Shown: positions 2,995 to 49,063 of the stretch, one piece after another
Position numbering within the stretch: position 1 is the stretch's first letter
Layout of the letters: the number at the start of each line of letters is the position of its first letter
DNA from: a virus
Taxonomy: Duplodnaviria; Caudoviricetes
DNA: 64,000 nucleotides
Virus record (IMG/VR): IMGVR_UViG_3300005330_000016
Location: 1 to 64,000 of that record
Direction: 5' to 3' (one strand)
Made by a program: the position numbers and the translations under genes
Notes under the pieces: generated by a model
What the model saw: the letters and a program-made list of their open reading frames with translations, nothing else
Database searches by the model: none
What the model was told of the DNA's origin: nothing

Positions 2995-3528
2995 CTACGC
3001 CTTCTTGGTTAGAACGACGTGCAGATCGTCAATGACGTTGTTGTAGTACCGAGCCTGGTGCGCGCGAGCTTCCTCAGCAGACAGTGCATAACGTCGGTCA
3101 TTGATGTTGTAGGCGTACGTGTAATCGAAGTTGCACGAGATCGGGTAGTGATCCAATTTGTTGTCCTCGCGCCACTGTCGATTCGTGTAGAGATACGACG
3201 CCTCAGAGATCGGCGGCCACTCATGCGTAGGGTCTTGGATAGCGCGCATAGACGCCCAGTACGGGGTAACGATGGTTGCCTGCGCGTCAACCTTGAGGAT
3301 GCGCCATAGCTCATCGAACAGTCGGAAGCGGTCGTGACCTGGCACGTGTTCAAGGAAGTGGCTAGAGAAAACCTCATCTACCGAGTCTGATTCAAAGGGC
3401 CAGGGGTACACGCGCAAGTCGTGAACGACATCGGCACCACAATCAGCCGAGATGTCAACGCCAATGAATCCCTCTTTTGCGGTTTGCCCGCAACCAAGAT
3501 CCAGCTTTAGCGCGGTTTCAACTACCAC
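2995..3528 (-). CDS. Class I SAM-dependent methyltransferase (Methyltransf_11-like)
   Basis: LDLGCG motif I, GVDI motif II, PFESDSVDEVFSSHFLEH motif. Confidence 0.85.
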   Translation of the reverse strand: MVVETALKLDLGCGQTAKEGFIGVDISADCGADVVHDLRVYPWPFESDSVDEVFSSHFLEHVPGHDRFRLFDELWRILKVDAQATIVTPYWASMRAIQDPTHEWPPISEASYLYTNRQWREDNKLDHYPISCNFDYTYAYNINDRRYALSAEEARAHQARYYNNVIDDLHVVLTKKA

Positions 3529-11021: not shown

Positions 11022-13139
11022 TTAGCCGATGATCTGAACTGTGCTGTGACCGGCGAGCGTGGTAAGCGTTCCGCCGGGTGCCCAATATTCGACTGCTGTA
11101 GCGGCACCGTCTACCGAGCCGCGCCCTTCGTCCGTTGCGCCCGTACCGTGGTTGCTCGCTCGCGGGTAGACCAGCCAGTAAGCGCCGCCGGTGCCATCTG
11201 CCACCGGGATCACATGTGTGACGTATCTGGTGAGCGCAACGCTGCCGCCGGTGATAGTCTGCGGAAGGTCGTCATAGGCCGCGAGTCTAACGCCTGAATC
11301 CGCCCACGTATCTAGCGCGATGTCGTACTGCCAGATGATGTGCGAAAGACCGAAGAAATATATAAAACCATCCGAGTGCTGGATATACGGACCGAAGCCG
11401 AACTCGGGCGTATCGGATACCTGCGACCACACGTCTGTTGCAGGGTCGTATACCCACACTTCTTGAGTGTAGGTGACTGCCCCTGAAAACGGTGCTGTGG
11501 CTGCATAGCCAGAGTCGAACAACCACACACGGTCATCGCTCGTGATTAGCCGCCCGCCGTGGTGCACCTGACGGTTACCCGATACCTCATCTGAGCCATG
11601 CGTATGGGGAATCTCGCCCAATTGTGTGAACAGTTGCGTTGAAGGGTCATAACGCACGAACCCGCTGCCCGTAAAGCCAGAGCCAAAGGGAAACAAGTAG
11701 ACGCGATTCAGGCTATCCACCAGCCCGCCATACTGCTGGTCACCCGCTGTGCCGTACCACTGCGTCCACGGCCAAAGGCAATTACCGCCCAGCCCGCCCT
11801 GAGTGGATGCGTAAGTCTGCGGTACGCCAGTCCACGTACCACCGGATCCACCGCTATACGTGAACACATCAGTCTCGGTTGTGGTGGTATGCCGAGTACC
11901 GCCGGTCAGCGATAGCAAACCGTTGTACGTCCAGAACGAAGCATTGAACATCTCGAATGGCAAGCTTGTTGCTGCCGTCCACACGTCCGTTGTCAGGTCG
12001 TAGGCGTAAACGCTAGCTGTTGGAATCTCGGTGATGTCGCTCGCAGTGGCGTCCACGATCTTGCTGCCGCCGGCGACATACAACTGATCACCGCTAACGC
12101 CGAACATCGGCGTGATCCGCACGTCGGGCATATTGCCGAGCGTTGTCCACGGACTTGACGTACTCTCAGGATGAATATTCGGATCTAACGCCGGGTCGTA
12201 AACCTCAACGTGCCTGTTGGTCAGATCATAGCCGCCGTAGGTATAGAACGCGCCACCACCTAGGGCTACGGCGTCATGAAGAACGGTGTGATCCCACACG
12301 CCACCCATCACGTATAGCTTGCCGTTGTAGCGAAACGCTATCGGGTCGCGTCGTGGGTACACTCGGCTAGGCAGTACCGTGTTTGGGCTGTCTACTTGCC
12401 AGCCAGCCGCCGGCCCGTTCAGGTCAATGTACGGATCTGCGTCGCTGGGATACAGGTGATATACCGGCCCTACAGTGACGGTGTGATGTCGCCACGGCTG
12501 AAGTGTTCCGAGACTATTCCCGGCCAGGCCGCTGTAGTCACCCGACGCATACCCATCTGCTACGCCATCAAAGCGAGTGTCCCAATATTGGAAGCCGCTT
12601 GGTCTTGGGTAGTACGTCATACCAGATGGGTACGCCACCATCCAGAATACGTCGCCTTGATTGAAGAATACCGGTGGCGAGAACCGCACTTCATCGCAGA
12701 ACGGATCTTGGCTGCTACGCATCGAGCCATAGAGACTTGACAGTGGAAATGTGGCAGATGTAAGCAGCGCACCGGGCGAGTTGGTGCCTTCTCGGACCTC
12801 AATGACGAGATTGTCTGACTCGTAGCCAGCAGGCTGAGCGGTAGAGAAGCTCGTAGGGCGCAGCCCCATAGCTCCAGCAATCAGTACGCCGTCTCGTGGA
12901 GCACGATGCCTGACCGCTACAACCAGATCGCAGGTTGTATCTCCTGGCCCAGGTGACCACGTAAAGCACTGGTCGGCAAGATTGATGTTGCCAGATACTA
13001 TCGGCTCAACGTTCGTGTCAATGTTGCCACTTGGCCCGTAAGACCAACTCTCAAACCATTGGGTGGAACCCAACGCGGTTGGCGTTGCCAGCACGAAAGC
13101 CGGATCATCTGGCCCGCCCCAGCGACGGTAGCTAGTCAC
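11022..13139 (-). CDS. Kelch-repeat beta-propeller protein
   Basis: Repeated LYVMGG / LYVAGG / LSLTGG and VEVYDP..W, VYAYDLTTDVW, VWVYDPATDVW motifs. Confidence 0.8.
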   Translation of the reverse strand: MTSYRRWGGPDDPAFVLATPTALGSTQWFESWSYGPSGNIDTNVEPIVSGNINLADQCFTWSPGPGDTTCDLVVAVRHRAPRDGVLIAGAMGLRPTSFSTAQPAGYESDNLVIEVREGTNSPGALLTSATFPLSSLYGSMRSSQDPFCDEVRFSPPVFFNQGDVFWMVAYPSGMTYYPRPSGFQYWDTRFDGVADGYASGDYSGLAGNSLGTLQPWRHHTVTVGPVYHLYPSDADPYIDLNGPAAGWQVDSPNTVLPSRVYPRRDPIAFRYNGKLYVMGGVWDHTVLHDAVALGGGAFYTYGGYDLTNRHVEVYDPALDPNIHPESTSSPWTTLGNMPDVRITPMFGVSGDQLYVAGGSKIVDATASDITEIPTASVYAYDLTTDVWTAATSLPFEMFNASFWTYNGLLSLTGGTRHTTTTETDVFTYSGGSGGTWTGVPQTYASTQGGLGGNCLWPWTQWYGTAGDQQYGGLVDSLNRVYLFPFGSGFTGSGFVRYDPSTQLFTQLGEIPHTHGSDEVSGNRQVHHGGRLITSDDRVWLFDSGYAATAPFSGAVTYTQEVWVYDPATDVWSQVSDTPEFGFGPYIQHSDGFIYFFGLSHIIWQYDIALDTWADSGVRLAAYDDLPQTITGGSVALTRYVTHVIPVADGTGGAYWLVYPRASNHGTGATDEGRGSVDGAATAVEYWAPGGTLTTLAGHSTVQIIG

Positions 13140-25053: not shown

Positions 25054-25232
25054 TGAGGCTGCGCCCCGCGTGTCTCGGCTCGTGCCGGCCCTACGTCAAC
25101 GCCGTGGTACTCCAGGCACACCTTGCAGTGGAACAGGTCAATCAGCCTGCGTTGATGCTGACCGTGCACAAGCTCGTCAGACAGCTTCACCTCTTGCCGC
25201 AGATACGCCCACTGGTGCTTGTGCTGAGTCAT
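25050..25232 (-). CDS. Small hypothetical Zn-ribbon protein
   Basis: ATGA-coupled start; HKHQW...CKVC. Confidence 0.55.
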   Translation of the reverse strand: MTQHKHQWAYLRQEVKLSDELVHGQHQRRLIDLFHCKVCLEYHGVDVGPARAETRGAQPQ

Positions 25233-26329
25233 GTAAATGCCGCCACCTTTGCCCACGAGTAAGCCTCTATGGCATCTGCTACGTATTGCCTGTCCTGCTC
25301 GCTCAGCCACCAGCCAACCGGAATGGCGACCTGATGGCCCGAGAACTTGTCAACGCCAGGTAGCGGCCCGTTGTAGTAATCAAACCCTTTGTGCGTATCG
25401 TTGCGAGCGTGAACCTGGCCGGTCATAACGCCACGATCTGCCATGAACTTGATGAAGCCCTGCTGGTTTTTCACACGCAGCGTGAACAGCCACCACGAGC
25501 CTTTAGCGTCGGGTGGCGGGAACAACACATCTGGCCCGGCTCGCAGGTTCACCATGTACCAGGCCGCATTCTCCCGGTGACGGGAAACGACCCACGGCGC
25601 ATGCGGCAGATTGGCTAGACCAATGGTCGCGTTCACGTCGTTCATGTGGTACTTGTAGCCGACTTCTCTGATATCCTGAGCGCACCGGAAATCTGCTGAA
25701 GACTCCCTATCTAGCCCATACCATCTGAGTAGCTTGGCCCGTTCGTAGTGCTTCTGAGGCACGAGAAGCGCCCCTCCGTCAACCGTGGTCAGATGCTTGA
25801 TCGCCTGGAAGCTCCAGGCCACATAGTCACCGTGGTTGTCGGGATCCACCATCAGGTTGTGCGCCGCATCTTGAATGACCGGCACAGGCAACCCTGGTGG
25901 CATGAGCCGCTTGTAGTCGCACGATCTGCCAGCCCAGTCTACGGCCATGATCGCCTTGGTTCGCCGTGTGATCTTCCTGAGCACATCATCGGGGTCAATC
26001 AGGCCCGTCTCAGGATCCACGTCTGCCCATACGATCTTGGCTCGCCGCGTGACGATTGGGCTATTGGTTGCCGTACAGGTCATGGGCGTGGTGATCACTT
26101 CGTCGCCCAGGCCAACACCGCACAGATGTAACGCCAGGTCCAGGGCTGAAGTGCAGGAGTTCATCGTTAGTGGCGTTTCCAGTCCCACCAACTCAGCGAA
26201 TTGTCGCTCGAACTCCTGCACCTTCGGACCCTGCCCGATGAACAGACGGCCATCTTCATCGGGAGTCAGTGCTAGCCACGCCGCTACGCCGGCGTCTGCC
26301 GACATAAACGGACGAAACAGATCAATCAC
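25229..26329 (-). CDS. DegT/DnrJ/EryC1/StrS family PLP-dependent sugar aminotransferase
   Basis: GPKVQEFE, NSCTSALDLAL, IQDAAH, SFQAIKHLTTVDGG (catalytic Lys), GYKYHMND; GTGA-coupled start. Confidence 0.95.
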   Translation of the reverse strand: MIDLFRPFMSADAGVAAWLALTPDEDGRLFIGQGPKVQEFERQFAELVGLETPLTMNSCTSALDLALHLCGVGLGDEVITTPMTCTATNSPIVTRRAKIVWADVDPETGLIDPDDVLRKITRRTKAIMAVDWAGRSCDYKRLMPPGLPVPVIQDAAHNLMVDPDNHGDYVAWSFQAIKHLTTVDGGALLVPQKHYERAKLLRWYGLDRESSADFRCAQDIREVGYKYHMNDVNATIGLANLPHAPWVVSRHRENAAWYMVNLRAGPDVLFPPPDAKGSWWLFTLRVKNQQGFIKFMADRGVMTGQVHARNDTHKGFDYYNGPLPGVDKFSGHQVAIPVGWWLSEQDRQYVADAIEAYSWAKVAAFT

Positions 26330-26778
26330 GGCTTGCTCCGGAAGTAAGCGTACGTGTCGTCTTCGCCTGTCTTGTCCCACCGATCCGCGTGATGCGTCTT
26401 GACTGCTGCCGGGTTGTCTAGCTTCGCCTGCGCGTACAGCGTGATGCCTAACGCCTTAGCCTCATCCGCAAGCATATCTACGATCTTGCCGCCCAGGCCA
26501 CGGCCTATATGCTTGATCCAGACGCCCGCCGATGGATGCCAACCATCCTCTGCTTGCTTGATCATACCGAACCCCACAACCTCCCCATGCTGCGAGTACA
26601 GCCACGCATGCAGCTTGTCGTGGTTGGCTCGCCACCAACCCCACTGCTCTTCTTCGGTGACTTCGCGGTTATCGTTGCTGAAGCCCGCCCTGCCCTGGTT
26701 GCGAATGAGCCGCATGCAGTTGACGTGGCCCCAGGTTGTTACTCGGGTTGCCACCAGTGGAACGGTCACAACTCCCAT
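26326..26778 (-). CDS. GNAT N-acetyltransferase (PseH-like)
   Basis: MRLIRNQGR...VTEEEQWGWW, VVGFG, HIGRGLGGKI (acetyl-CoA motif A), DNPAAV. Confidence 0.8.
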   Translation of the reverse strand: MGVVTVPLVATRVTTWGHVNCMRLIRNQGRAGFSNDNREVTEEEQWGWWRANHDKLHAWLYSQHGEVVGFGMIKQAEDGWHPSAGVWIKHIGRGLGGKIVDMLADEAKALGITLYAQAKLDNPAAVKTHHADRWDKTGEDDTYAYFRSKP

Positions 26779-26969
26779 GTGGTGATTACCGCCAAGCCGG
26801 TCGCAATCGGATGCCACGTCCACCACACCGGGGCGGCTTCGGTCGCCAGTGCTCGCGTACAGCGCATGCAGATAAGCTCTGCCGTCCACGGCTCAACGAG
26901 CGGTATCACGTACTCGGTGCTCTTGCAACGTGGGCACAGGCTGATCACAGGTAGCTCGCTCAGCTTCAC
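26766..26969 (-). CDS. Small Zn-ribbon protein
   Basis: CPRC...CMRC; coupled. Confidence 0.5.
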   Translation of the reverse strand: MKLSELPVISLCPRCKSTEYVIPLVEPWTAELICMRCTRALATEAAPVWWTWHPIATGLAVITTWEL

Positions 26970-27715
26970 GTTGAGTAGCCTCCTGACACGTTCAGCACAG
27001 TGCCCGTCACGTAGTTGCTCTCGATCAGGTACATCACGGCCCGCGCCACGTCCTGTGGTTGTCCGAAGCGTCGCATAGGAATCTGACTCAGCACCTTCTC
27101 GCGGTTCTCTTGCGAGACTTCGCTAAGCATGCCAGTGCGGTCTATGAAGCCCGGCGCTACCGCGTTGACCGTGATGCCTTTGTGCGCTAGCTCGATGGCC
27201 GTAGCCTTAGTGAAGCCGACCAGGCCCGCCTTGCTCGCCGCGTAGCTAGCTGGCCCGAGTCGGCCATCCAGCCCAACAACGCTCACGATGTTGACGATCC
27301 TGCCCCAGCCGCGAGCAATCATGGCCGGTAAGGCGATCTGTGTAATCCGGAATGTTCCGGTTAGGTTTACGTCAACAACGTTACGCCAATCAGATAACGT
27401 GGTCTTACCAACGGACCTACCAGCGGTCACACCGGCGTTGTTGACCAGAATATCGCAGTCGAGTTCGGTCAGGATCGGGTACTCGTTGACCAGCGCCACC
27501 TTGAGGATCTCGGCGTCACCACCGTAGGCACGTACTTCGCGCATGGTCATCTCTGCCTGGTCGCCACGAGTGTTGTATCCGATGGTCACAGCCGCGCCTT
27601 GGCGTGCTAGCTCTAGCGAGATCGCTCTGCCGATGCCGTGCCCGCCGCCCGTTATCAGCGCATGTCGCCCAACCAACGGCAGCGGTGGCACGAGTACGTC
27701 AATCAACGCTGTCAT
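26966..27715 (-). CDS. Short-chain dehydrogenase/reductase (FabG/PhaB-like)
   Basis: TGGGHGIG, NNAG, YAASK catalytic motif, VNAVAPGFI. Confidence 0.95.
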   Translation of the reverse strand: MTALIDVLVPPLPLVGRHALITGGGHGIGRAISLELARQGAAVTIGYNTRGDQAEMTMREVRAYGGDAEILKVALVNEYPILTELDCDILVNNAGVTAGRSVGKTTLSDWRNVVDVNLTGTFRITQIALPAMIARGWGRIVNIVSVVGLDGRLGPASYAASKAGLVGFTKATAIELAHKGITVNAVAPGFIDRTGMLSEVSQENREKVLSQIPMRRFGQPQDVARAVMYLIESNYVTGTVLNVSGGYST

Positions 27716-28287
27716 GGGCGAGCGATAGCTACGATGGCGTTGATCCAGATCGGGTCGTTGCCGAAGCCGTTTACCGTGCCTTCGATGTAGTCAAAATCCC
27801 CATTGTAGGCGTCGGTGAACTTGCCGATCTTGCCAGGCACGTTGGGTGTCACAACGCAATGCCCGCCGATGGTGTCACGTTCAAGCCTCCCCGCTTGACT
27901 CCAAAAGATCTGTCTGCCGTAGTACGACTGAAACCGGAACAGCAGCACCTTACCCGGCCAGGTCTGCGCTCCACGGCGCATCAAGGAAACCGCATCGGGC
28001 GTCCAGATGTCGTCGTCGTCGTTCAAGTGGATGTAGTCACCCTTGGCCTGGGTGATCGCGTAGTTGTGCTGGCAATGCCCGAAGCAATGGTGCCCTGCGT
28101 CCAGGCTTAGATAGCGAAGCCCCAACCCGGTCGTCAGTGCTTCTACACCGGGCAACTGGCCGTCGTGCGTATCTCCTACGACGATAACCTCATCACCTGA
28201 ACCGAGTTGGGGCTTGATGCTAGCCAGGCAACGCGCTAGTGGACGATCTTCCCTATGCGTTGCGACGATGAAAGAAAAGGTAGTCAG
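27712..28287 (-). CDS. GT2 glycosyltransferase; probable CUG start at 28287
   Basis: TTFSFIVATH...RCLASI...DEVIVVGD N-terminus lies upstream of the called TTG; GDYIHLNDDDD DxD motif. Confidence 0.85.
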   Translation of the reverse strand: MTTFSFIVATHREDRPLARCLASIKPQLGSGDEVIVVGDTHDGQLPGVEALTTGLGLRYLSLDAGHHCFGHCQHNYAITQAKGDYIHLNDDDDIWTPDAVSLMRRGAQTWPGKVLLFRFQSYYGRQIFWSQAGRLERDTIGGHCVVTPNVPGKIGKFTDAYNGDFDYIEGTVNGFGNDPIWINAIVAIARP

Positions 28288-28583
28288 GGCTTGGCTGTTG
28301 GAGTCCTGCGCTCTTCGACTACCGGATCTTCGCCAAGCGGCTGACCCATCTGGATCGGCTCGTTCTGAGACGGCTGGTCTGCCTTGGGCTTGCCCTTGAT
28401 CTCGTGCGGCTCGCCAACCTGAACCCAGCGGTCAGATCGCGCCTGGTAGACGTAGGTCTTGCCGCCAGCGGTCAGTGGCCGGTCGCGGTCGGCGTTCACG
28501 TCGTGCTCGTGCTCAACGGTGCCAACGAAGCCGCCGTTTGGGTCGTACAGGTTCACTGGATACATCTGCTTGTCTTCAGCCAT
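28284..28583 (-). CDS. Hypothetical protein immediately after capsid gene
   Basis: 99 aa, AGGAGG SD. Confidence 0.65.
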   Translation of the reverse strand: MAEDKQMYPVNLYDPNGGFVGTVEHEHDVNADRDRPLTAGGKTYVYQARSDRWVQVGEPHEIKGKPKADQPSQNEPIQMGQPLGEDPVVEERRTPTAKP

Positions 28584-28729
28584 GTGTACCTCCTGACCAA
28601 TTGTAATGCAGTGGATATGCCGGGCAGGCGAACACGGTAGCCAGGGGGAGGGAGACTACCGTGTCGCCGCTCAGCCCGGCGCGTGCTTCGTGCCGTAAAA
28701 GCACCACGCGCCGGGCGATCACGAGAGGC

Positions 28730-30284
28730 TTACAGCCCGGTGACCTTACAGAAGACCGTTGGTCGCCAGCCGACGAAGGCCACGCGCAACTCAGCCAGAA
28801 TGGTCTGCATGTTGCGGATGAACTGGTCGTTGACGGTGCCAACGCGAACCGCACCCTGCTCGCGGTCGTAGAGGGTGACGCCCTGGTTGAAGTCACCGAT
28901 CAGGCCGGTGCCCGCTGGGATGTTCGGATCCAGCACGACCGGCAGGCCCCACAGGGTATCTGCGCCGCCCAGGCTTGGCGGGCCGAACAGGTAGGTACCG
29001 GGGGTAGCAGTAGCCGCCGACTCACGGCTGAGTCGGATGTTCTGCCAGTCGGTCGGGTTGAGCACGAACGCGGTAGGTCGGCCCAAGCCGGTCCATGCCA
29101 CGTAAGTGCGGCCCTTGTACAGCGCGTCAACGCCAGCGTCAGTGCCCTTGCCCACAACGCCGATGCCGGCCAGGTTCAAAATGCCAGTCAGGTTCTCACC
29201 TGTGCCGTCACCGCTGACGATCTGGCTCTGAAGCTTCTGCTGAAGACCGAACAGCAAGCGCTGGTCGATGATCGAGCGGATGGCCGGGGCGTCAGACAAC
29301 ATGCGGTTGGTGCATCTCTTAGCGTCAGGCTCTTTATCCTGACTTCTCCTCGTTTCCAAGGAGTGTGGGACTATATCTTCACCCTGGTAGGGTGCCGCGC
29401 ACTCGTGGGGCTTTACCGTCCGGTCTGGACTCCATGCCCTAGTCTCTGAACCTTCCGACCATTCCTGATCGGCTTGGCTGCTGATTACCTGTACGGCTTC
29501 CAGCAATTCACGCGGTAACTACAGCGTATTACTACGCTGCGCGGCCAGATTCGACCGGGATCCAGTGAGCCATGGTCCTGACGGTTGCGGTCTGCGTGCT
29601 GTATGCGAGCGCAGACTCAGGCTTGACACCGCTACCACCGAGAGCAGTCGCGTCAAAGGCCGTAGCCTCAGCGACGAACGCAGCAGAGTTGGTGAACGTG
29701 GATTCACGCACGTACTCAATGGTGTCTGAGTCGGTCGGGCTGCGCGGGATCAGATCCAGCACGTTGAGCGGGTTCTGGAGGATATCCAAGAAGCCCGGCT
29801 GGTGGTCTTCCAAGACGAACGCCTGACCCGAAGTGGACGAACCACCGCGCAACAGGGTCTTCTGGTTGGCCCAGTCCAGCATGCTGGTGCCTTCGGCCAT
29901 CGTCACATCAAGGTTGACGCGGGTCAGGTTGCTGTTGAACAGACCCGACATCTTGGCTTCGCGGTAGTCCACGCTGCCCAGGAATTGCTGGCCCGGCGAA
30001 AAGCGCCGGCCTTCGGGAGTGGTGTTGTCACCAGCCGCCGATGGTCGGTTCTGCGGCTTGCTGTGCCGATCCAGCGATTGCAGGATGCGCTTGCGCCGCA
30101 CCTCAGCGTCTTCCAGGGTGACGAGCCGTGCTTCAAGGTCGTCAACCTCTTGGAAGATCTGCTTGACGTGCTCGCGCTCTTCCTGCGGCATCTTCTCGGG
30201 GTCGTCGTATCTCTTTTCGATCAGATCGGCTTCCTGCATGCGAGTCTTGATCTCGGCAGTAGCCTCTTGAACGGTCATAGCCAT
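28730..30284 (-). CDS. HK97-fold major capsid protein, two exons join(30284..29554, 29312..28730), 437 aa
   Basis: Coiled-coil delta domain, E-loop DTIEYVRE, KPESALAY; spliced junction restores AHWIPV-TNRMLSDAP; C-terminal FIRNMQTILAELRVAF. Confidence 0.95.
29313..29553 (-). mobile_element. Group I self-splicing intron (241 nt, no ORF, IA-like) in the major capsid gene
   Basis: P GAATTGCTGGAA, Q AATCAGCAGCC, R GTTCAGAGACTA, S AAGATATAGTCC; exon-terminal U in a P1 U.G pair; terminal G; P2, P3, P6a, P8, P9 helices identifiable. Confidence 0.95.
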
Positions 30285-30291
30285 GGTGGAG

Positions 30292-31152
30292 CTAAACCTC
30301 AATGCCACGCTGGCGCAGCCTGCGCCGGCGAAGCTCGAACGCCAAAGACATGTCAGCTTTTTCGTCGGCTGGCACGTCAGTGCTGGGCGGTAGTTCCGGC
30401 TCGCTTTGCTTGTGGGCCAGGACCGCTTCAGCATCGGAACGCACGGCGTCCATCTCAGAGAACGTCTCCAAGAGCGCTTCAAGGTCTGTCCGCTTGCTAT
30501 CGGTCAGGTCAAAGTCACCTGCCTGTAGCTTGGCGAGTAGATCGCGGCAGCGCTCACGGAACGCAGCCACGGTATCAGTCAGTGTTTTGGTCAGGTCGGC
30601 CAAACTCAGCCGCGAGTAGTCAAGCGTATCAACGCTCTTCATCTCGCGCATAAGCTTCTCGTAAGTGCGAATCACACCTTCAAGGTCTGTCTCAGACTTG
30701 ACGGATTGCACTCGCGCCTGGTCGTTCATGGGGATGCTGACTACGCTGTTTTCCAGCAAGTCAATCTCTTTGAGCAGCCGCGTGTCGCCTTCGTTGGCCC
30801 ACTCCCAGGTCTTGGGGATGTAGCCGATACTCATAGAGCGAATCGCGCCACGCTTGAGAAGCTTGTAGGCGTCCAGGCCCTGCTGGGTGTCGATGATCTC
30901 CCAGGTTCCGAGTAAGCCCTTGCCGTCTTCCTTGATCGACTTCTCGATGCCGATGGGCGAACGCGGGTCGTGCTGCCAGAGCAGCGGTCGGTCGCGGTTG
31001 GTGTTGGTCAGCGTGCCCTTGAAGGCACCCTTCTCGATGATGTCGCCGCCGTGGTCTTCGTTACCAAAAGTCGATGCGTAGGCGGTGAAAGTCATGGCGT
31101 CGGAGCCGTCTTTCACGTCAACCAGCGTTAGCGGAATGGACTTGTAGAGCAC
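30292..31152 (-). CDS. HK97-family prohead protease with C-terminal helical extension
   Basis: FTAYASTFGNED, LLWQHD, SMSIGY, LKEIDLLENSVVSIPMN. Confidence 0.95.
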   Translation of the reverse strand: MLYKSIPLTLVDVKDGSDAMTFTAYASTFGNEDHGGDIIEKGAFKGTLTNTNRDRPLLWQHDPRSPIGIEKSIKEDGKGLLGTWEIIDTQQGLDAYKLLKRGAIRSMSIGYIPKTWEWANEGDTRLLKEIDLLENSVVSIPMNDQARVQSVKSETDLEGVIRTYEKLMREMKSVDTLDYSRLSLADLTKTLTDTVAAFRERCRDLLAKLQAGDFDLTDSKRTDLEALLETFSEMDAVRSDAEAVLAHKQSEPELPPSTDVPADEKADMSLAFELRRRRLRQRGIEV

Positions 31153-31201
31153 AGTAGGCCGGCTCCCTTCGTGAGCGCAGGATGGGCCGGGGAACGTGGT
31201 G

Positions 31202-31270
31202 CGCCGGCGGTTTTAGAATTGGTCTTGAAAAAGTGTTGACAGATCAATGAGGAAGGTGTAAGTTACGCAT
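31202..31270 (+). promoter_or_regulatory. Promoter P2 with CGCCGGCG box; leaderless start at 31271
   Basis: Box 31202-31209, gap 26, TTGACA 31236, 17 nt, TAAGTT 31259, 6 nt to ATG. Confidence 0.85.
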
Positions 31271-31537
31271 ATGGCAAACGCAGCTTGGGAAGTGACCTTC
31301 GTAGGTCGATTCGATTCTCGCCCTTACGCAACTGGTCTTACGGAAGATCAGGCCCGTAACGTTATTGATTGGCTTCAAGATCGTGATGAGGGTGCGCTTT
31401 ACGTAGCTAGCCCGATGGATCTCGAAGAACCCGACGATCTAGACGATTGGGAGGGTCCAGAAGCTCTCGGTTATTCCGAGTCGGACCCGGAAGCTTTTGA
31501 CGAGATGGTTCGTGACGATATGCGGGGAGCCTTCTAA
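31271..31537 (+). CDS. Highly acidic small cassette protein
   Basis: 88 aa, Asp/Glu-rich C-terminus; leaderless. Confidence 0.7.
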   Translation: MANAAWEVTFVGRFDSRPYATGLTEDQARNVIDWLQDRDEGALYVASPMDLEEPDDLDDWEGPEALGYSESDPEAFDEMVRDDMRGAF

Positions 31538-31958: not shown

Positions 31959-33083
31959 TCAGGCTGTTTTCGAGAGGATTAGCTGGGGCTTGTTCCGGAA
32001 TCTTTCGATGGCATCTTCCCAAGCATCCGGCCATCTCCACCAGTTGTTCTCAAGGCTGTGCTCGGTCATAACCGTCTTACGGGCGTTCCGCTGCAAGGTC
32101 TTCCGTAGCTCTTCCGATTCGATCAGCCGTGAGATCGCAACCACGAGTTCTTCGGTTGTCTCGGCTATCAGAGCGTCGTGACCGTCTGTAGCCTCACGAC
32201 CGTACACAGTAGGGCTGACAACGCTCACAGCGCCGCCTAGCGTGGCTTCGTACCACTTGATGCAGGACTTGCTGTGATTGAAGCCCATTGGCGCTACGAC
32301 GCAGCAGGCTATGTCTATGTTGAGCCATGCTCGTGGGTACTCGGGTAGCTGAAGCCACGGCAGCGAGTGCCTGCGCTCTGCGGAAATCGAATCGTACAGC
32401 TTGCCTGGGATGAAGCCCTGAATCACGAACTGCACTTCGGGGTAACGCTCAGCGATGATCGACCAGGCTTCGGACAGTGCTGCCACGTCGATCTGCTCAC
32501 GAGCACCACCGGCCCAGCCGACCGTCAGCTTGCCCTTTAGCTCAGGTATGCGGTCGCAGCCGCGCAACGTCTCCTTGAACCAGCGGGCGTCAATACTGTT
32601 GGGGATCACGTAGACGGGTGGCGGATTGTCGCCAGCATGCGCCTTGACCACGGTTGCCAGCCGTTGAGTTGTGACGGTGACACCATCGCACACACTCAGC
32701 AGCCGGATCCGCTCCTGCCTCTCCCAATCAAGCTGTGCGTAGCCCTTGGCTGCTTCTGTCTCGAACAGCCGCGACTGGCGCGGGATGATCATGGGCGAGA
32801 ACACGTCGTCATCCACCTCGTACAACCAGGCCAGCCCGGCCTTGTGGATAATGTTGATCCAGCGTTCACCGATATCCTTGTGCGGCCACACGATCCTGGG
32901 CGTGATGATCGCGTCGTAGCGACCCGCTGCAACTAGCGGCAGTACCACGTCAGCCTTGTCTTTGTGTGCCCACTCGGCTACGAAGCCACGCTTCTCTAGC
33001 TCAGCGAACGGTTGCCAAACGCGCCACAGCGAGCAGCCGGTCTCGTCGCCAAGTAACGCCAGGACTCTAGGTGCGCGGTTCAT
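31959..33083 (-). CDS. GT-B (GT4-like) glycosyltransferase
   Basis: GCSLWRVWQP, YEVDDD, VTVTTQRL, VIPNSID, VGWAGG, KSCIKWYEA motifs. Confidence 0.85.
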   Translation of the reverse strand: MNRAPRVLALLGDETGCSLWRVWQPFAELEKRGFVAEWAHKDKADVVLPLVAAGRYDAIITPRIVWPHKDIGERWINIIHKAGLAWLYEVDDDVFSPMIIPRQSRLFETEAAKGYAQLDWERQERIRLLSVCDGVTVTTQRLATVVKAHAGDNPPPVYVIPNSIDARWFKETLRGCDRIPELKGKLTVGWAGGAREQIDVAALSEAWSIIAERYPEVQFVIQGFIPGKLYDSISAERRHSLPWLQLPEYPRAWLNIDIACCVVAPMGFNHSKSCIKWYEATLGGAVSVVSPTVYGREATDGHDALIAETTEELVVAISRLIESEELRKTLQRNARKTVMTEHSLENNWWRWPDAWEDAIERFRNKPQLILSKTA

Positions 33084-33357
33084 AGATCGGGTTTGACAGC
33101 CGCTTGTTGGGCCGGCGCTTCGGAACCGTAACGTGTTCCGGAACATGTGCCGGTTTATCCAGATGCGCCTGGACGCCGCGAGCGACGTTCTCGAAGGCGT
33201 GGGCCAGGTTCAGGAACTCTTCGGGTGGCATGCGCTCTTCGACAAGGATCACACCTTCGCGGGCAATCCTGACCATCACGTGAGTGCCCTGCGCAGCGGT
33301 ATCTTCGCCAAATGCGAAGTTCCACTCGTGCGCGATATCAAAGTCCATCGGAGTCAT
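33067..33357 (-). CDS. Hypothetical protein
   Basis: 96-aa coupled ORF. Confidence 0.5.
   Translation of the reverse strand: MTPMDFDIAHEWNFAFGEDTAAQGTHVMVRIAREGVILVEERMPPEEFLNLAHAFENVARGVQAHLDKPAHVPEHVTVPKRRPNKRLSNPIYEPRT
33124..33155. repeat. 32-bp interrupted palindrome centred on GTTCCGGAAC
   Basis: AACCGTAACGTGTTCCGGAACATGTGCCGGTT; related copies at 31849, 57188, 58528, 59111, 62606. Confidence 0.8.

Positions 33358-48988: not shown

Positions 48989-49063
<75 letters not shown>

Follow-up and report, generated by a model that had tools for sequence, protein, structure and literature searches.

How does a tailed phage make its major capsid protein (MCP) when the reading frame of the gene breaks off part-way and resumes in another frame? 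The question is raised by positions 28,730 to 30,284 of the stretch of DNA analysed here (the window), which comprises positions 1 to 64,000 of IMG/VR virus record IMGVR_UViG_3300005330_000016 (Duplodnaviria; Caudoviricetes), 64,000 nucleotides (nt) in all. The full record comes from an uncultured soil phage, is 77,982 bp long and is rated 100% complete by CheckV. On the unspliced DNA, gene calling returns two open reading frames (ORFs), 29532..30482 and 28730..29506, encoding fragments of 316 and 258 amino acids (aa); these are the two broken genes that the initial annotation of this locus had expected from an automated pipeline. We conclude, with a probability of roughly 0.93, that the single HK97-type major capsid gene of this phage truly contains a self-splicing group I (IA-type) intron without an ORF. 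The gene consists of the following parts:

29554..30284 (-): capsid exon 1, 731 nt (243 codons plus GT); ends ...TMAHWIP(V); intronless homologues align over its whole length
29313..29553 (-): group I intron, 241 nt, ORF-less; first base C29553, terminal (omega) G at G29313
28730..29312 (-): capsid exon 2, 583 nt (C, 193 codons and the stop codon); runs from (V)TNRMLSDAP... to the C terminus

The splice junction

The unspliced capsid frame reads ...CAC TGG ATC CCG GT, where T29554 is the last exon base. Continued into the intron, it gives GTC GAA TCT GGC CGC GCA GCG and then a TAG (UAG) stop at 29534-29532, seven codons in. The capsid frame picks up again at C29312, in a different frame, as (GT)C ACC AAC CGC ATG (from 29311, TNRMLSDAPAIRS...). 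Excision of 29553..29313 joins GT|C into a valine codon, placing the insertion between the second and third base of that codon (AHWIPV|TNRML), and restores a coding sequence of 1314 nt for a protein of 437 aa that reads MAHWIPVTNRML. The spliced RNA is predicted to carry ...ATCCCGGT joined to CACCAACC, with TMAHWIPVTNR as the predicted junction peptide. The intron has a G+C content of 55%, compared to 60-64% in the exons.

The terminal G29313 directly precedes exon 2 and is the sole in-frame choice that agrees with the homologues. Homologue alignments of both protein and DNA fix the boundaries to the base, exactly as the initial annotation had drawn them for a V-T-N-R-M product. A 3' splice site at G29316 was rejected; it would also be in frame, and would add a cysteine (WIPVCTNR) that is seen in no homologue. 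An alternative reading of the duplicated C (intron GAAU...GAUGC) violates both the rule of a U before the intron and the rule of a G at its end. The ribozyme match described below, together with the in-frame stop and the frame change, rules out an intein, a frameshift or a bypass.

Intronless relatives and the capsid protein

Among the matches listed for exon 2, at least 120 homologues are all single uninterrupted proteins, nearly all of ∼430-459 aa, with identities of up to 90%. The initial annotation had expected intronless homologues to align across WIPV-TNRM, and 13 aligned homologues (436-444 aa) do so, reading MAHW[IVL]P[VI]TNRML over the junction, gap-free and without additional residues. 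Each exon is open, and the two are 78-91% identical to functional-looking homologues. At the DNA level, alignment with ten intronless alleles reveals a clean insertion of 241 nt, and one related locus (L008) holds the identical uninterrupted site CACTGGATCCCGGTCACCAACCGCATG. The insert is absent from all 38 related IMG/VR loci; in 33 of them, the exon 1 and exon 2 matches lie in the same frame and exactly one codon apart.

Exon 2 matches the Pfam family PF05065 (Phage_capsid) with an E-value of 2.4e-26, and a Pfam scan of exon 1 by itself gave no match. The exon 1 product comprises a delta-like coiled-coil region at the N terminus and the opening portion of the HK97 fold. A homologue that is 90% identical (P0003) matches the HK97 gp5 structures over residues 147-435 (E ∼6e-46). 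Through this homologue, the Val|Thr junction aligns with Ala192|Ser193 of gp5, just ahead of the DDAPMLQSYINNRL stretch, with which the long spine helix begins. No block of the family is more conserved than the one that holds the insertion, with H, W, P, T, N, R, M and L almost unchanged among the aligned homologues. The equivalents of the HK97 cross-link residues K169 and N356 and of the catalytic E363 are conserved (GVKPES near 29610 and FIRNMQTILAELR near 28790); thus, the capsid may be covalently cross-linked into a chain-mail.

Structure of the ribozyme

The covariance-model search that the initial annotation had called for matches Rfam RF00028 at 29346-29563(-) with 74.7 bits (gathering score 50; E = 3.9e-17) and covers the full model (positions 1-253 of 253). 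It is the only RF00028 match in the whole 77,982-bp record. The core junctions follow the Rfam consensus nearly letter for letter, with AAU in J3/4 before P4, GGUUCAGAGACUA in J6/7-P7 and AAGAUAUAGUC in J8/7-P7'. The minimum-free-energy fold (-94.3 kcal/mol; z = -3.6 relative to shuffled sequences) recovers P1, P2, P3, P4-P6a, P7.1, P8, P9 and P9.1. Between them, the RF00028 alignment and the fold locate every helix named in the initial annotation at its proposed place, and the P7.1 insertion and the lack of an ORF bear out its description of an ORF-less, IA-like group I intron. Agreement of this extent goes well beyond what chance would produce. The elements are:

29542..29558 (-): P1 hairpin; exon CCGGU and intron CG pair with the guide UGGCCG; loop AAUC
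29521..29540 (-): P2 hairpin; GUAA tetraloop; the UAG stop at 29534-29532 overlaps the loop and the last part of the 5' strand
29369..29515 (-): catalytic core; P3, P4-P5, P6/P6a, J6/7, P7, P7.1, P3', P8 and J8/7 (AAGAUA)
29407-29439 (-): P7.1 hairpin; 33 nt between P7 and P3', with covarying pairs
29346-29363 (-): P9; GAAA loop
29324-29343 (-): P9.1 peripheral hairpin; loop AUAAAGAG inside the motif GAUAAAGAGCC, which is conserved in relatives

In the predicted P1, U29554, the last base of exon 1, forms a U.G wobble with a G of the UGGCCG guide. P3 is formed by CCGCGU and GCGCGG, and P8 by CACCCU and AGGGUG. An alignment of the window intron with seven related introns was used to assess covariation. 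In this alignment, 24 of the 45 consensus pairs keep their pairing through two-sided changes, which are found in P3, P4, P5, P6a, P7.1, P8 and P9. The P7 strands, GACUA (29440-29444) and UAGUC (29369-29373), are complementary; all eight aligned introns have them unchanged, and hence they give no covariation signal. Compared to the Rfam consensus, there is a 36-nt insertion between P7 and P3', the position of P7.1/P7.2 in subgroup IA introns.

The pathway that these features suggest is that of a standard group I intron. The head maturation protease gene and the capsid gene would be transcribed together late in infection, and the intron would fold in the transcript. The U.G pair of P1 marks U29554, and a free guanosine nucleotide held in P7 would then attack the phosphate that follows it. 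The freed 3'-OH of exon 1 would in turn attack after the terminal G29313, giving the joined exons, i.e. the mRNA for the 437-aa capsid protein. On unspliced RNA, ribosomes would halt seven codons into the intron. Because this in-frame stop sits inside P2, translation and RNA folding would have to interact, an interplay that is known for the T4 introns.

Some points weigh against the interpretation as an active IA intron at a homing site. Splicing of this copy in vivo is a prediction drawn from DNA, in which the core is intact and the host gene is essential and present once. P10 has only ∼2 bp (CA/UG), and the choice of the 3' splice site draws on the terminal G and the homologue alignment. The finer assignment to subgroup IA2, which accounts for more than half of viral introns (PMC11835236), would follow from the position of P7.1 and from 77% identity to introns in Bacillus-phage DNA polymerase genes. 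Among the 38 IMG/VR relatives and the exact-signature matches in IMG/VR and Joint Genome Institute (JGI) metagenomes, this HK97-type gene had no second intron-bearing allele, so that homing at this site is a putative event. A free-standing homing endonuclease was likewise not detected in the phage with PF01844 (HNH) or PF01541 (GIY-YIG), the LAGLIDADG and PD-(D/E)XK families not having been searched.

Related introns and their host genes

In cultured phages, related introns share 72-84% identity with the window intron over the ribozyme core (from P3 on). They are located in the following genes:

DNA polymerase genes of Bacillus and Enterococcus phages
thyX of the crAss-like Kehishuvirus
primase-helicase region of a Vibrio phage
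tape-measure gene of a Sporosarcina phage

The closest copies in IMG/VR and the JGI metagenomes (84-88% core identity) interrupt SU10-type capsid genes (PF17236). Three of these introns (L045, L046 and L052) share the insertion point ISP|EETPF, whereas L056 has its intron at a second SU10-type site. The introns of L046 (2311-2562) and L052 (∼3060-3311) are nearly identical, together with a few flanking bases, despite capsid proteins that are only 36% identical, which directly attests to horizontal transfer. Exon identity between the two drops away within ∼20 nt of the 3' junction, which suggests a recent transfer with a short co-conversion tract.

To follow this lineage, we used the P7.1 signature GGAGUCCAGANCGGACGGUAAA as a marker. 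The signature GGAGTCCAGANCGGACGGTAAA matches 54 IMG/VR loci; a P7.1-signature scan of the GTDB genomes gave no match whatever. Host genes were assigned by masking intron-like DNA, clustering the flanking ORFs and scanning them against PHROG and Pfam. The 55 lineage loci, which form 37 clusters at 95% identity, are distributed as follows:

SU10-type MCP: 33 loci, one of them inferred from its scaffold gene
PHROG 9953 MCP: 6 loci
PHROG 1357 MCP: 5 loci
PHROG 267 MCP: 3 loci
HK97-type MCP: 1 locus, the window intron, the only such case
DNA polymerase: 4 loci
Tape measure: 3 loci

Capsid genes from five sequence families thus host 48 of the 55 loci, a count that covers the P7.1 lineage only and derives from a signature that picks up only part of the intron family. 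The seven non-capsid loci are all in low-GC Firmicutes phages or prophages. The sample is biased in that short IMG/VR contigs are called viral partly via hallmark genes such as capsid. Nonetheless, among metagenome-derived contigs of at least 15 kb, all 13 cases are in capsid genes (14 with L077, which has an isolate-genome-like identifier prefix). The SU10-type genes have at least four insertion sites, and there are several distinct sites per capsid family, with the guide sequence retargeted each time. A quick maximum-likelihood tree places the window intron in a clade (SH-like approximate likelihood ratio test support, SH-aLRT, 99) with eight SU10-type and three tape-measure copies, and the class of host gene switches at least ten times on this tree.

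The general statement in the initial annotation that phage group I introns reside mostly in DNA-metabolism genes holds for cultured phages, among them those with introns related to this one. It needs qualifying for this lineage, with its predominance of capsid loci, and introns in capsid genes have been published (PMC3706429, PMC2504315, PMC7886860). A literature search for a capsid-biased intron lineage found nothing specific. It is possible, though we would sooner bet against it, that the P7.1 lineage preferentially colonizes major capsid genes. In our main reading, the window intron is a member of a mobile lineage of ribozymes by which such genes have been colonized time and again.

Several other features were seen in this lineage. 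Some copies bear GIY-YIG, HNH, LAGLIDADG or Endo VII-like ORFs. Nuclease ORFs of three families (GIY-YIG, HNH and LAGLIDADG) occur in related capsid introns at L054:9786-10253, L059:6118-6837, L069:4302-4886 and L098:8056-8745; it appears that nuclease genes of different kinds have entered this ribozyme lineage more than once. In L055, a 216-aa Endo VII/HNH-like ORF (11209-11859, +) occupies the strand opposite the capsid gene and is flanked by the scaffold gene and the intron's ribozyme core, a layout that resembles the antisense endonuclease of the capsid intron of mycobacteriophage LittleE. The capsid genes of L062, L064, L080, L083, L093, L095, L098 and L099 each hold two to four intron-like blocks in a span of 2 kb, marking them as multi-intron genes. 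The tape-measure gene of a low-GC prophage (L043:9751-10587, -) contains two group I introns ∼350 nt apart, which split it into fragments of 278, 120 and 1251 aa.

Comparison with known phage introns

The capsid-gene intron of LittleE is removed efficiently, as shown by reverse-transcription PCR and N-terminal sequencing (Pope et al. 2013, PMC3706429). As in the window, a tailed phage has its major capsid gene interrupted by a self-splicing intron that is missing from relatives. However, the LittleE intron is 819 bp long, carries an endonuclease ORF on the opposite strand, has only a tentative assignment to group I and is located close to the mature N terminus, whereas the window intron has 241 nt, no ORF and a clear group I score, and lies just before the sequence aligned to gp5 residue 193. 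The minor tail gene intron of BAKA and Optimus (PMC3706429) is likened to the window intron by features, not by sequence: it is small (265 bp), free of an endonuclease and located in a structural gene, with a U before the 5' site and a G at the 3' end, but it interrupts a tail rather than a capsid gene.

The closest cultured ribozymes are those in the DNA polymerase genes of Bacillus phages (Wphvirus/Bastille-type, such as OmnioDeoPrimus and Hakuna; SPO1-group), whose 77% identity extends over ∼200 nt. They share the P7.1 hairpin (33 of 36 bases identical), the junctions and the GAAA-capped P9, and the OmnioDeoPrimus and Hakuna copies are likewise ORF-less. They differ in their host gene, in belonging to low-GC Firmicutes phages and in P1 and P2, which are unrelated, in keeping with another target site.

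Introns of group I are also described in the MCP genes of crAss-like phages of the Delta and Zeta groups, sometimes several per gene (Yutin et al. 2021, PMC7886860), and the major head protein gene of lactococcal phage Tuc2009 is listed with one (PMC2504315). These introns belong to other phage groups, were recognized via endonuclease domains and are comparable by description, not by sequence. Late genes densely loaded with introns have been reported from the Jug phages (PMC12880540).

The environmental capsid introns with the P7.1 signature interrupt MCP genes of the SU10 type (L045, L046, L052 and L056), PHROG 9953 (L054 and L055), PHROG 267 (L059 and L069) and PHROG 1357 (L066 and L098). 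They are of the same lineage as the window intron, with core identities of 79-88% for L045, L046, L052, L055 and L056 and lower values in the rest, and many are ORF-less. They differ in capsid family and insertion site, have P1 guides of their own and in some cases carry HNH, GIY-YIG or LAGLIDADG genes; none is in an HK97-type (PF05065) gene. Capsid-gene group I introns are thus already known, and the new part is the capsid-biased P7.1 lineage.

Why the intron is there

The best reading is that the intron is a selfish, phenotypically silent passenger, harmless because it splices well, since all relatives of this capsid gene do without it and the same ribozyme occurs at many unrelated sites. 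Its arrival was probably through homing with the aid of an endonuclease whose ORF was later lost, through help in trans or through reverse splicing.

The passenger might instead confer immunity in co-infection, being kept for destroying the target site of a homing endonuclease of competing phages. The insertion in the most conserved DNA and protein block is typical of an endonuclease target, related capsid introns carry or adjoin nuclease ORFs of the HNH, GIY-YIG, LAGLIDADG or Endo VII-like kinds, and ORF-less introns are known to partner with free-standing endonucleases aimed at the same site in collaborative homing (PMC3984707). However, no endonuclease for this HK97-type site was found, nor was an intron-plus relative at this site in the IMG/VR, JGI metagenome and GTDB scans. 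The intron itself encodes none, its 241 nt containing no ORF beyond the read-through frames, and none adjoins the capsid gene in this genome. The sole HNH-type domain of the phage, HNH_3 (PF13392) at 73251-73403 (-), lies within a 562-aa ORF 44 kb off and outside the window, and so does not make up a homing endonuclease that stands free. We therefore consider this protective role improbable.

A regulatory role of the kind raised in the initial annotation, in which splicing would depend on guanosine nucleotide level, translation or growth state and would gate capsid output as a late-phase timer or nutrient sensor, is a still poorer prospect. Capsid production would depend absolutely on splicing, and the stop codon inside P2 would force an interplay between ribosomes and RNA folding. 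In T4, intron splicing reportedly depends on translation and growth state (to go by the title of a 2007 article by Sandegren and Sjoberg), which would favour such control. On the other side, GTP levels in cells far exceed the affinity of group I introns for their guanosine cofactor. The 38 related phages and hundreds of homologues without the intron place it outside any conserved programme of capsid expression, and a lineage found at many unrelated sites and genes has the pattern of a mobile parasite rather than of a dedicated regulator. The intron has no sensor-like extra domain; its sequence offers no support for control and is explained without it.

Finally, the notion of a ribozyme that no longer splices, leaving a capsid pseudogene in a defective or mis-assembled genome, draws on an intron that is a singleton among its relatives and is known from DNA alone, and is scarcely credible in view of the intact core helices and consensus junction nucleotides, the well-conserved open exons, boundaries that fit the U|...G| rule to the base and the status of the gene as the only capsid gene in a complete record.

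Gene neighbourhood

Other features on the same strand are:

30292..31152 (-): prohead (head maturation) protease; PHROG 80, E = 3.5e-57; directly upstream of the capsid gene
26966-27715 (-): FabG-like short-chain dehydrogenase/reductase (SDR); PHROG 3142; just downstream of the capsid gene
25229-26380 (-): aminotransferase; just downstream of the capsid gene
31959-33146 (-): glycosyltransferase; upstream of the protease gene
48992-49063 (-): phage-encoded tRNA; 63 bits; anticodon loop CUCAUAA

The capsid ATG (30284) starts 8 nt past the protease stop codon, and the two genes are probably co-transcribed. A promoter and terminator scan of 28500-31400 found nothing on the strand of the capsid gene, including between these two genes. 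Right past the capsid stop codon, a GC-rich long inverted repeat, GCCCGGCGCGTGGTGC...GCACGCGCCGGGC, is present at 28680-28725 (-). It was not flagged by the terminator scan because it lacks a T-run, and may form a transcript-stabilizing or attenuating hairpin. Sugar-modification genes are located inside the head module, at 25229-28155 and 31959-33146 (-), which hints at glycosylation of the virion or modification of the host envelope. The tRNA has a CAU anticodon (Met or Ile2 type), since its loop reads CUCAUAA.

Significance

Gene callers that split this hallmark gene degrade capsid-based virus detection, phylogeny and proteome matching, and the exact exon coordinates mend the annotation. For RNA circularization tools, compact (∼240 nt) ribozymes that lack an ORF and have known exon contexts are useful raw material as well. 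The locus provides a further clear case in which the most abundant virion protein of a phage would depend on ribozyme chemistry, and it links the HK97-type gene of a soil phage to an intron lineage whose remaining capsid-gene hosts belong to four further families. We know of no direct demonstration that group I introns transpose by reverse splicing. If the capsid bias is real and not a matter of sampling, the choice of target would be tied to the capsid message itself. One candidate route would be insertion by reverse splicing into the late mRNA that a co-infecting phage makes most abundantly. The P7.1 lineage is a good system for how endonuclease-free group I introns reach new sites.

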